Shown: positions 4,820 through 6,505 of the stretch, one piece after another
Numbering within the stretch: the stretch's first letter is position 1
Layout of the letters: the number at the start of each line of letters is the position of its first letter
IMG/VR virus record: IMGVR_UViG_3300045988_012163
DNA from: a virus
Length of the DNA: 43,046 nucleotides
Reading direction: 5' to 3' (one strand)
Translations under genes and position numbers: made by a program
Notes under the pieces: model-generated
What the model was told of the DNA's origin: nothing
What the model saw: only the letters and a program-made list of their open reading frames with translations
The model's database searches: none

Positions 4820-6505
4820 TTACCTTAAGAAAATATCAATGATTTTCGCTCTGTTCGGAAACATCTTTCTGAATACGTCCGGATTTTTAACAAATTCGGC
4901 CACGCTTTCCGCAAAATCCTCAGAATTGGCGTTTTCTCCGTAGACTGTAACCGATTTTTGACCGGATACCTTCTTATCTTCAGCCATTGCATCCGTCCAC
5001 CATGTGTACTCTGAGAAGCGTGTGCCATTTACGCTATTGTCCGTGTCAACTTTATGCCCGATTTCATGGCAATACGTTCGCACAACATAATCGTCGTTAT
5101 GCGGATGATCATAACGCCAAAAATTGATGTCATCCCCGCCCGTAGCATAACTGCCTCGGAATTTCTTGTATCGCTTTCTCCAGTATTTGTCTTGCGGATT
5201 ATGAACATCTTGGAATATGATTTGTTTTTGCCCCATATCCCGTAATTTTTCTGGAACCTTACCCCAAAGCTCAACCGCTTTCTCTGGGGTCATCGTCTGG
5301 TGCGCTTTGTTGTAACTCACTGGAAATACAAACTCTGTTCCGTCTGGAGTTTTATAAACCGTGGCATTTGCGGATTTTCTCGTCCCGTTTTCCGTTCCAT
5401 CACTAAAATCATATTTCCGCGTCTCCGTGGTGCAATCCGAAATAGTGATTGGCAACGGCTTGCTTTCTTCTATTATAGCAGATTTTGCCGCACTTGCAAC
5501 TTGCTTTGTATCCTTTTTCCATCCAGCCCATTCAGCATAGGACATATTAGAAACGACCTCTGTTTGCCCCGTATCGGCGTTTTTGGCGCGTCTCTGCGCC
5601 GATGAGGTATCTACGCCCTCCACGGCGGCAATCAGCGTACAGCGGCAGTTATATATCTCCCACGGTGGCCCTTGTGGGTCGCCGGGAAAGCGACACCCGT
5701 TAGAAAACTTCTTGTCCTGCGCCACTTGTTCGCCGTCAAGCATGGCATGAGAGTGGCGTGTACGCGCGTCCAGCGTAGCCAGCCAACATTTTTTGAGCTT
5801 AATCCCCATCTTCTCCGCCGCCGCATAGCTATCCATGCGTCCGGCGTTCTGCGCGCCGGTCACGGCAGTTCTGGCCGTGCGAATTGCGCTGTCTCGGCTC
5901 ATGGTGGAGATCCGCTTTTGCAGGTCATCCGCCATGTGCTTGATGCTCTTCCCCTGCAAGATAGAGCTGGTGACGCTTGCCGTGATCTGCTTCTTACCAT
6001 ACGCGAGGTCGATACCACGCTTTAAGGCCCGTTTCGGCGGGTAGTATGGCATTAAGTCCGGCTGCTCTACCATAAGCCGCTTGACAGTCTGCTCGTCCCA
6101 CAGGTCGAAGCCCACGTTCCCAGCCACACTCTCGATGGTGTACGCCGCATAATTGCGGTTGAGGGAGTAAATACCGGGCGTTGCATCGTTGGTGTAGGAC
6201 ACCGCCACAGCGTTTGCATCGGTCACGCGGTGCGCCACCTTGTCCCGCATGGCCTGATAGCGTTCCCCACGCCCAATCTGGTTCAGCCGCCATTGCTTAT
6301 AGTCCTGCTCCGTCCATTCCTTGCCGTTCTGCACGGTGCCGATCAGCGCCTTCATTTCCTCGTCGCGCTTTTTGAATTGCTCAAAATATGCGTCGATGGT
6401 AGCTTGCAGTTCTTCCCCCGCCTCGCGGTATAGCGTTGCAATACGACGTTCCAGCTTCGCAAGCTCCTTGTCGGTCAGCTTGTGTCCGAGGTCACTGTTT
6501 GGCAT
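4820..6505 (-). CDS. Head morphogenesis protein (SPP1 gp7 / Mu F-like) fused to a C-terminal lethal-factor-like HExxH metallopeptidase domain
   Basis: N-terminal about 290 aa end in the MuF hallmark ...PWEIYNCRCTL. The C-terminus carries YCHEIGHKVD (5054..5068) and YGENANSEDFAESVAEF, which parallel HEFGHAVD and YGRTNEAEFFAEAF of anthrax lethal factor. Confidence 0.8.
   Translation of the reverse strand: MPNSDLGHKLTDKELAKLERRIATLYREAGEELQATIDAYFEQFKKRDEEMKALIGTVQNGKEWTEQDYKQWRLNQIGRGERYQAMRDKVAHRVTDANAVAVSYTNDATPGIYSLNRNYAAYTIESVAGNVGFDLWDEQTVKRLMVEQPDLMPYYPPKRALKRGIDLAYGKKQITASVTSSILQGKSIKHMADDLQKRISTMSRDSAIRTARTAVTGAQNAGRMDSYAAAEKMGIKLKKCWLATLDARTRHSHAMLDGEQVAQDKKFSNGCRFPGDPQGPPWEIYNCRCTLIAAVEGVDTSSAQRRAKNADTGQTEVVSNMSYAEWAGWKKDTKQVASAAKSAIIEESKPLPITISDCTTETRKYDFSDGTENGTRKSANATVYKTPDGTEFVFPVSYNKAHQTMTPEKAVELWGKVPEKLRDMGQKQIIFQDVHNPQDKYWRKRYKKFRGSYATGGDDINFWRYDHPHNDDYVVRTYCHEIGHKVDTDNSVNGTRFSEYTWWTDAMAEDKKVSGQKSVTVYGENANSEDFAESVAEFVKNPDVFRKMFPNRAKIIDIFLR

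Follow-up and report, generated by a model that had tools for sequence, protein, structure and literature searches.

What is a protease doing at the end of a phage head protein? The question is raised by a 43,046-nt stretch of viral DNA, IMG/VR record IMGVR_UViG_3300045988_012163 (hereafter the window), in which a minus-strand gene at 4820..6505 encodes a 561-aa fusion of a MuF/gp7-type minor head, or ejection, protein with a C-terminal zincin. A short open reading frame (ORF) for a 58-aa partner protein lies directly downstream at 4629..4805. A sequence-only reading of the window had likened the C-terminal part of the fusion to anthrax lethal factor (LF) and had proposed that it is a swapped cassette. 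We find that the module retains the gluzincin catalytic set (H-E-x-x-H, Tyr, Glu), that it has been exchanged on the MuF backbone at a sharply defined boundary, and that it is strictly linked to the small partner, with which it co-diverges. Its predicted fold resembles those of LF and PPEP-1. We consider it probable that the pair consists of a protease effector, delivered by the virion, and its cognate inhibitor or immunity protein, and that the MuF head protein acquired the two together as a cassette.

Results

A lethal-factor-like module follows the MuF domain

The 561-aa protein, taken from the ORF list, is divided into a virion-targeting part, a linker and the protease module. Phage_Mu_F (PF04233) matches residues 173-292 (5630..5989, minus strand) with E=5e-18 and 66.3 bits against a gathering cut-off of 29.6, and the SPP1 gp7 domain model TIGR01641 also scores above its cut-off (41.0 versus 39.65 bits). 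The end of the MuF domain thus falls where the sequence-only reading had placed it, at ...NCRCTL. The PHROG matches of the protein include minor-head and head-morphogenesis families. Residues 293-350 (5456..5629) form a linker that is predicted to be disordered, with a predicted local distance difference test score (pLDDT) of 42-65, and that contains a recombination junction near residue 327 (DNA junction 5526/5527). The remaining residues, 351-561 (4823..5455), make up the module, as delimited by pLDDT, Foldseek and profile matches.

The HExxH motif noted earlier at 5054..5068 is HEIGH, residues 480-484, in which H480 and H484 correspond to two zinc ligands and E481 to the catalytic base, in alignment with HEFGH of LF. 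It is followed by D487 (5045..5047). The segment YGENANSEDFAESVAEF begins at Y522, 38 residues past H484, and the stretch from Y522 to E529 (YGENANSE, 4919..4942) ends with E529 in an EDFAES helix. The distance from the second His to Tyr (38, H690 to Y728 in LF) and that from Tyr to Glu (7) are the same in the module and in lethal factor, so the claimed reproduction of LF spacing and residues holds.

We then aligned 82 diverse full-length homologues. The sole invariant positions are H480, E481, H484, D487, Y522, E529, A532 and R552. All five catalytic positions and D487 are therefore retained although the sequences are otherwise only ~9% identical per column, which indicates that the active site is under purifying selection. 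A zinc ligand is lost in just one of 37 sequences (P0024), where HEAGY replaces HExxH. The sequence-only reading had hinged on conservation of the HExxH residues and on a peptidase fold; the homologues keep HExxH, the catalytic Tyr and the third-ligand Glu, and the searches described below point to a zincin fold.

As a single sequence, the tail matches no PDB sequence, and against Pfam it gives only sub-threshold matches to Peptidase_M90. A homologue search returned 61 proteins covering the module, and a trimmed family profile of 29 sequences (A2) was compared with PDB chains. Three relevant chains were matched: 9urd (E=2.6e-5), which is a Peptidase_Mx1-type 'substrate import-associated zinc metallohydrolase', then anthrax lethal factor with E=0.04 and PPEP-1 with E=0.9. 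In the alignment to LF, ycHEaghyiD pairs with FIHEFGHAVD, and on LF chain 2l0r taYgensnaEDFAE pairs with TSYGRTNEAEFFAE, which brings the Y522/E529 region onto the YGRTNEAE segment of LF. Counted along the aligned LF sequence, H480/E481/H484/D487/Y522/E529 of the module coincide with H686/E687/H690/D693/Y728/E735. From what is known of LF and PPEP-1, we take Y522 to be the counterpart of the catalytic Tyr728 and E529 that of the third zinc ligand Glu735; the PPEP-1 counterparts are presumably Y178 and E185.

Curated families stop short of naming the module. When the 29 family members were scanned singly against Pfam, Peptidase_Mx1 was matched by 21, M90 by seven, Peptidase_Mx by seven and ATLF by three, all below gathering scores. 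The window protein itself reaches 16 bits for M90 (PF06167; cut-off 26.2), 14 for Mx1 (PF15890; 25.6) and 14 for TIGR04549 (75), and has no match to ATLF (PF07737) at E<=1; the best of the three ATLF-matching members has E=7.9e-4, again below the gathering score. Neither the module nor the small ORF could be named by a match above threshold in Pfam, NCBIfam, PHROGs or PADLOC.

An AlphaFold2 model built with the alignment begins with 60 residues of pLDDT 42-65, the disordered linker, and has pLDDT >90 across the module. In a Foldseek search of the PDB, the top 23 matches are all LF catalytic domains (E=6e-5 to 1e-3, probability 1.0), followed by PPEP-1/Zmp1, with target-normalised template-modelling scores (TM-scores) of 0.51-0.55, and then by Certhrax. 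The profile and structure comparison with ATLF/M34 that had been proposed thus returned an LF-like zincin fold and no other fold, whereas the PF07737 gathering threshold was not reached. Judged from its residues and modelled fold, the module belongs to the lethal-factor-like gluzincins, with no member of the catalytic set missing. As it stays below every curated family threshold, we file it as a sister family without a name, lethal-factor-like rather than a demonstrated member of M34/ATLF.

The module and the small ORF are exchanged as one cassette

The sequence-only reading had described the DNA of the tail as AT-richer than the MuF part, with a boundary near 5.55 kb. The G+C fraction is indeed 0.434 over 4629..5455, compared with 0.574 over the MuF part (5633..6505) and a window mean of 0.536, which places 4629..5455 within the lowest 4% of equal-sized windows. 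In BLAST searches, many MuF proteins are 63-97% identical to the query up to residues ~331-389, where they stop or diverge. One of them (P0074) is 96.7% identical over residues 1-331 and has a total length of 338 aa. Others carry a different domain beyond the junction, namely an ADP-ribosyltransferase (P0064, P0065, P0067 and P0068) or a domain with a weak ATLF match (P0072). Identity to the query up to the point of divergence is 64-97% for P0074 and these proteins, and MuF relatives at 81-87% up to the junction include both kinds of replacement domain.

The locus of the 338-aa protein, L041, resolves the boundary. Its genes are ordered as in the window, except that the gp10-like gene is placed directly after the short MuF gene. 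By blastn, L041 positions 1-2472 align with window 10018-7547 (98.8% identity), 2501-3479 with 6505-5527 (98.5%) and 3511-4706 with 4635-3440 (90.3%). An 891-bp segment of the window, 4636..5526, thus stands in place of 31 nt in L041. It coincides with the low-GC stretch and takes in the whole small ORF as well as the 3′ portion of the MuF gene, which encodes residues 327-561. The protease module and the small ORF move as one two-gene cassette, resolved here to the base pair, and the predicted swap of a C-terminal cassette is seen directly as an indel on a 98.5%-identical backbone, with other domains following the same junction in related proteins. As the comparison of these sequences implies, the module is dispensable accessory cargo.

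Two further observations concern the cassette. At L043 (2501..4168), a MuF relative that is 81% identical over the shared MuF part carries a different LF-like domain, with a weak Pfam ATLF match, followed by unrelated ORFs of 43 and 98 aa; this suggests a second, independent cassette of LF-like protease and partner on the same MuF backbone. Just inside the 5′ edge of the window cassette, within the MuF gene, a sigma-70-like site at 5499..5472 on the minus strand (TTGCAA, 16 nt, TG-TATAAT; 10/12 matches) could in principle allow the downstream part to be expressed without late transcription. In promoter and terminator scans of the region, site counts were not above shuffled expectation, and we therefore claim no independent transcription unit.

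A conserved partner protein is linked to the protease

The 58-aa ORF begins 14 nt downstream of the protease gene and had been singled out as a candidate immunity gene. At seven loci examined by hand, an ORF of 56-60 aa directly follows the module, whether the carrier is MuF, Phage_min_cap2, VG15 or an unknown protein. An alignment of these partners has invariant positions at T22, P23, G25, G26, Y28, S29, E30, I31, I41, E43, C44, G48 and E53. With a hidden Markov model (HMM) of the small protein, we then scanned the ORFs in all six frames of the fetched loci. Wherever the module match is strong (E<1e-30), the partner is present on the same strand, in 33 loci with 26 distinct sequence pairs, mostly at -10 to +63 nt from the module stop codon. 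The candidate has accordingly turned out to be a conserved partner gene in 26 of 26 distinct loci. No partner is present at L041 or L042, which have no module, or at L043, which has the ATLF-type module; L043 is the one locus from which co-variation of immunity and toxin genes across swapped toxin domains can be read. Pairwise divergences of module and partner are correlated (Mantel r=0.48, reached by 0 of 2000 permutations).

The partner family comprises at least 770 clusters at 90% identity, each of ~55-65 aa, none of which has a Pfam domain or an informative name. AlphaFold2 predicts an all-beta protein, a five-stranded beta-meander, with pLDDT 95.5. Weak matches to DUF4680, BrxB and MORN_2 were treated as noise. 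A Shine-Dalgarno-like AAGGCGGTG lies 6 nt ahead of the partner ATG, and the partner stop codon overlaps the start of the gp10-like gene (ATGA); from these signals, the partner is predicted to be translationally coupled and co-expressed with the late head genes.

Several loci carry variants of this arrangement. The window partner is itself atypical, in that it is without the central ~10-residue 'NGNxVDExxA' segment of nearly all relatives (alignments A4 and A5) and has an extra N-terminal 'KKFYDDNGKLVKE' hairpin resembling the missing segment, which looks like a permutation of beta-hairpin units. In L005, whose phage encodes a MuF-protease 82% identical to that of the window, the small-ORF frame at 5053..5232 is open and scores 77 bits, but none of the codons before 41 is ATG, GTG or TTG. 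A lost or non-canonical start codon would account for this, as would an error in the assembly.

At the edges of two decayed prophages, L029 (2690..3483) and L039 (2995..3343), the protease gene is frameshifted or truncated to a C-terminal fragment beside host genes, and the partner ORF is kept intact (63 and 76 aa, respectively). These may be 'orphan' immunity genes. In several bacterial contigs (L008-L010, P0009; L006, P0014; L012, P0017), the gene for the carrier-protease and that for its partner lie in a minimal remnant of a phage, with host genes on either side. The L008 remnant adjoins Cas1/Cas2/Cas4 and the L006 remnant a Cas9-like gene and MerR, and the P0009 arrangement recurs in many samples. 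The pair may therefore be retained after prophage decay.

The protease family is large and has several carriers

Searched exhaustively with the profile, the family has 1607 representatives (clusters at 50% identity) at E<=1e-3, and 155 of these reach E<=1e-30. The module is nearly always at the extreme C terminus of its protein. Of the 82 diverse members, 41 have Phage_Mu_F as the N-terminal partner, 13 have Phage_min_cap2 and six have VG15, with single cases of an ADP-ribosyltransferase, an intein and a baseplate-hub (GPD) domain. Two giant proteins of ~7.7 thousand residues, P0147 (7713 aa) and P0170 (7686 aa), carry four separate module matches, which suggests polyvalent-protein contexts for the same protease family; no family member matched the MPTase-PolyVal Pfam model at E<1. 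A distant form of the module also lies inside ORFs that span the whole 6.4-6.5 kb locus at L031 and L036. Bacterial contigs with the module are mostly from Clostridia (Oscillospiraceae and relatives), and more distant members occur in other phyla. Phage entries of the same fold in UniProt are labelled just 'minor capsid protein'.

Genomic context

The MuF gene sits in the head and packaging module, near the portal gene, which it directly abuts in L041. MuF/gp7-type proteins bind the portal. Read along the minus strand, the genes begin with large terminase (8896..10131) and continue with SPP1-type portal (7511..8860; PF05133, E=2e-35), a 132-aa ORF, a DUF4417 gene, the MuF gene, the 58-aa ORF, an HK97-gp10-like tail-completion gene (4228..4632; PF04883, E=4.7e-8; phrog_5) that marks the right edge of the cassette, scaffold and capsid. 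A tyrosine integrase is encoded on the plus strand at 26433..27446 (PF00589, E=5.8e-13, above cut-off), which indicates that this gut phage is temperate. Relatives also lie within bacterial contigs of metagenome-assembled genomes. The identical 561-aa protein is found on ~42-43 kb contigs from many metagenome samples, and megablast of the region against GenBank phages gave a short match to the DUF4417 region and no annotated relative.

Other parts of the window carry accessory genes. The interval between portal and MuF, 6506..7546, is a second accessory insertion (minus-strand ORFs 6475..7119 and 7116..7514), made up of the 132-aa ORF without a family match and the DUF4417 protein (PF14386, E=4e-58; PHROG 940 'nuclease'). 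Both genes are missing from the 98.8%-identical L041 phage, and the G+C fraction falls to 0.43-0.46 around 6900-7300. Further low-GC islands at ~23200-24800 and ~28500-29300 (down to 0.40 and 0.375 versus the window mean), one of them near the integrase and lysogeny region, probably hold additional accessory (moron) genes; the ORFs scanned within them have no Pfam match. A 416-aa minus-strand ORF at 36836..38086 with a collagen triple-helix repeat (PF01391, E=1.5e-6) is probably a tail-fibre or receptor-binding protein, and the protein encoded at 22146..22685, which has a 3D domain (PF06725), probably hydrolyses the cell wall.

Discussion

A model for cassette function

In the model that we favour, recombination at the flexible C-terminal linker of a MuF/gp7-type minor head protein would have brought in a cassette of two genes. 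The products of this cassette would be a ~210-residue LF-like zinc endopeptidase, in frame with MuF, and a ~57-residue beta-protein. By means of its MuF part, the fusion would enter the procapsid via the portal, in a few copies, and would be ejected with the DNA, by analogy with gp7 of SPP1 and gp44 of 80alpha. SPP1 gp7 binds the portal, is present in few copies per virion and leaves the capsid with the DNA. The MuF-family protein 80alpha gp44 has been described as an ejection or pilot protein (PMC12323379). Once in the cytoplasm of the newly infected cell, the protease may act on at least one host protein, with a defence, translation or regulatory factor as candidate substrate. The partner, co-translated from the late operon, would bind and block the protease in the producer cell, and possibly in lysogens, and would thus be its cognate immunity protein or inhibitor. 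This role is suggested by the logic of polymorphic toxins and by the characterised MuF-Apk2 system.

Several results weigh against this reading. The TM-score of the module to LF is a modest 0.35 when normalised to the 270-residue query, which includes the disordered linker. No partner was found beside five of six distant module relatives (E 1e-14 to 1e-24), some of which lie in giant ORFs, and the sixth, L037, has a marginal partner match (E=4.7e-4). Since distant members of the protease family occur without the partner, an inhibitor is therefore not universally required by the family. Co-occurrence and co-divergence would follow equally from simple linkage. The small protein has no detectable similarity to known protease-inhibitor or immunity families, with Pfam, NCBIfam and PADLOC searches all empty, and a Foldseek search with its predicted fold gave no significant neighbour; as the best match has E=0.18, we claim no inhibitor-like fold.

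An alternative is that the zincin acts in cis as a processing peptidase, which would trim or release MuF or other head proteins at capsid maturation or before ejection and would have no host target. Autoprocessing of carriers by virion-associated zincin metallopeptidases (MPTases) has been proposed (Iyer et al. 2017, PMC5512222). MuF and the module are joined by a long, disordered linker, members of the family are also found in the multi-domain giants, and the N-terminal two-thirds of the protein match PHROG 595, 'head maturation protease'. That match spans residues 10-388, however, and thus covers the MuF part and not the zincin. A nearly identical phage has the 338-aa MuF without a protease, so the module is not needed for head assembly, and an ADP-ribosyltransferase or another toxin-type domain occupies the same position in related MuF proteins. 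A dedicated, strictly co-inherited small partner would also be hard to explain, and we regard processing in cis as unlikely. More improbable still is a catalytically dead or purely structural module, such as a DNA- or portal-binding extension with a zincin fold whose motif likeness is a relic. The HEAGY homologue shows that such loss can occur, but it is the single case among 37 sequences, and the catalytic positions and D487 are invariant in homologues that share little else; we give this possibility very little weight.

A different question is whether the effector is delivered as proposed while the small ORF has another role, as a chaperone for folding or packaging, as a cofactor for activation, or as a second cargo or adaptor protein acting jointly with the protease. 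Linkage and co-divergence argue for functional coupling and say nothing of its sign, the small protein resembles no known inhibitor, and expression from the late operon would occur in a cell that is about to lyse anyway. Yet its position, its size and its joint swapping with the toxin domain fit the immunity genes of polymorphic toxins, including the MuF-Apk2/IapK pair (PMC12226406), and an intact small ORF beside a truncated protease, as in L029 and L039, is more to be expected of a protective gene than of a cofactor. A role other than inhibition therefore seems to us improbable. We rank the autoprocessing, cofactor and dead-domain readings below that of a delivered effector with its inhibitor.

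A bolder version of the effector-inhibitor proposal can be put forward tentatively, and we hold it to be possible but doubtful. The 57-residue all-beta partner would represent a new class of proteinaceous inhibitor for LF-like zincins and would form, with the protease, a self-contained toxin-antidote cassette that hops between MuF, minor capsid protein 2, VG15 and baseplate hub carriers. The injected protease would disable a host defence or regulatory protein at the start of infection, and retention of the antidote would shield lysogens or decayed prophages from related phages.

The new elements here are an LF-like protease family without a curated model, an unnamed and very widespread 57-aa partner, and the movement of both as one cassette. 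Proteins ejected from the capsid act before phage gene expression and are thus prime candidates for countering host defences or for biasing the choice between lysis and lysogeny. The locus offers a clean system, with a protease module precisely delimited at 891 bp and natural near-isogenic phages with and without the cassette. The catalytic residues can all be predicted from lethal factor, and the candidate inhibitor has a confidently predicted fold. Because public records say just "minor capsid protein", ~1600 representative sequences are at present without a protease annotation. Should the partner prove to inhibit LF-type zincins, it would also be worth considering as a scaffold for inhibitors of the M34 group, to which lethal factor and C. 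difficile PPEP-1 belong.

Comparison with known systems

Variable toxin domains at the C terminus characterise a well-known class of MuF proteins (Zhang et al. 2012; Jamet et al. 2017, PMC5576092), as the sequence-only reading had noted. Metallopeptidase domains were reported in 20% of 191 MuF toxins and a small downstream ORF in 89%, and the same authors speculated that low-toxicity MuF cargos such as peptidases might bias the lysis-lysogeny decision or counter cellular defences (PMC5576092). MuF toxins were also associated with temperate phages (Jamet et al. 2017, PMC5576092), and the integrase of the window agrees with this. The window shares with the class an N-terminal MuF domain encoded near the portal gene, an exchangeable C-terminal enzymatic domain, a small ORF (<150 aa) directly downstream, and a temperate phage with Firmicutes-type hosts; it differs in that its partner belongs to an unnamed family. 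The experimentally studied MuF toxin is MuF-Apk2, with the immunity proteins IapK and Aph1, of which IapK occludes the Apk2 active site (PMC12226406). In the literature searched, no MuF-linked protease had been characterised experimentally, and LF-like peptidase toxin domains had been catalogued with delivery by Photorhabdus virulence cassettes (PVC) and the type II secretion system (T2SS), not with MuF (Zhang et al. 2012).

Among proteases, LF and PPEP-1/Zmp1 (MEROPS M34) are the best structural matches (Foldseek E=6e-5, probability 1.0). Like the module, they have HExxHxxD followed by 38 residues (in LF) to the Tyr and seven more to the third-ligand Glu in an E-x-F-A-E helix, and a narrow protein channel is the route by which LF, like the proposed cargo, gets to the place where it acts. 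Sequence identity between these enzymes and the module is a mere 14-19%. In contrast to LF, the module is without domains for binding protective antigen (PA) or for docking substrates, would be delivered by a phage capsid and tail instead of a toxin pore, and presumably has a bacterial target instead of a mitogen-activated protein kinase kinase (MAPKK). The best sequence-profile matches are to the Peptidase_Mx1/TIGR04549 lipoprotein (9urd) and Peptidase_M90 (MtfA), which share the HExxH...Y...E-D/x-F-x-E arrangement. Unlike the module, members of these families are cellular lipoproteins or cytoplasmic regulators rather than C-terminal cassettes associated with virions, and no conserved 57-aa partner accompanies them. 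The MPTases of polyvalent proteins (Iyer et al. 2017, PMC5512222) are likewise virion-associated zincins that are linked to MuF in a domain network, and one described clade has, as does the module, an Asp three residues past HExxH (PMC5512222). The module differs from them in usually being the single cargo of a ~350-600-aa head protein and in travelling with a dedicated partner gene.

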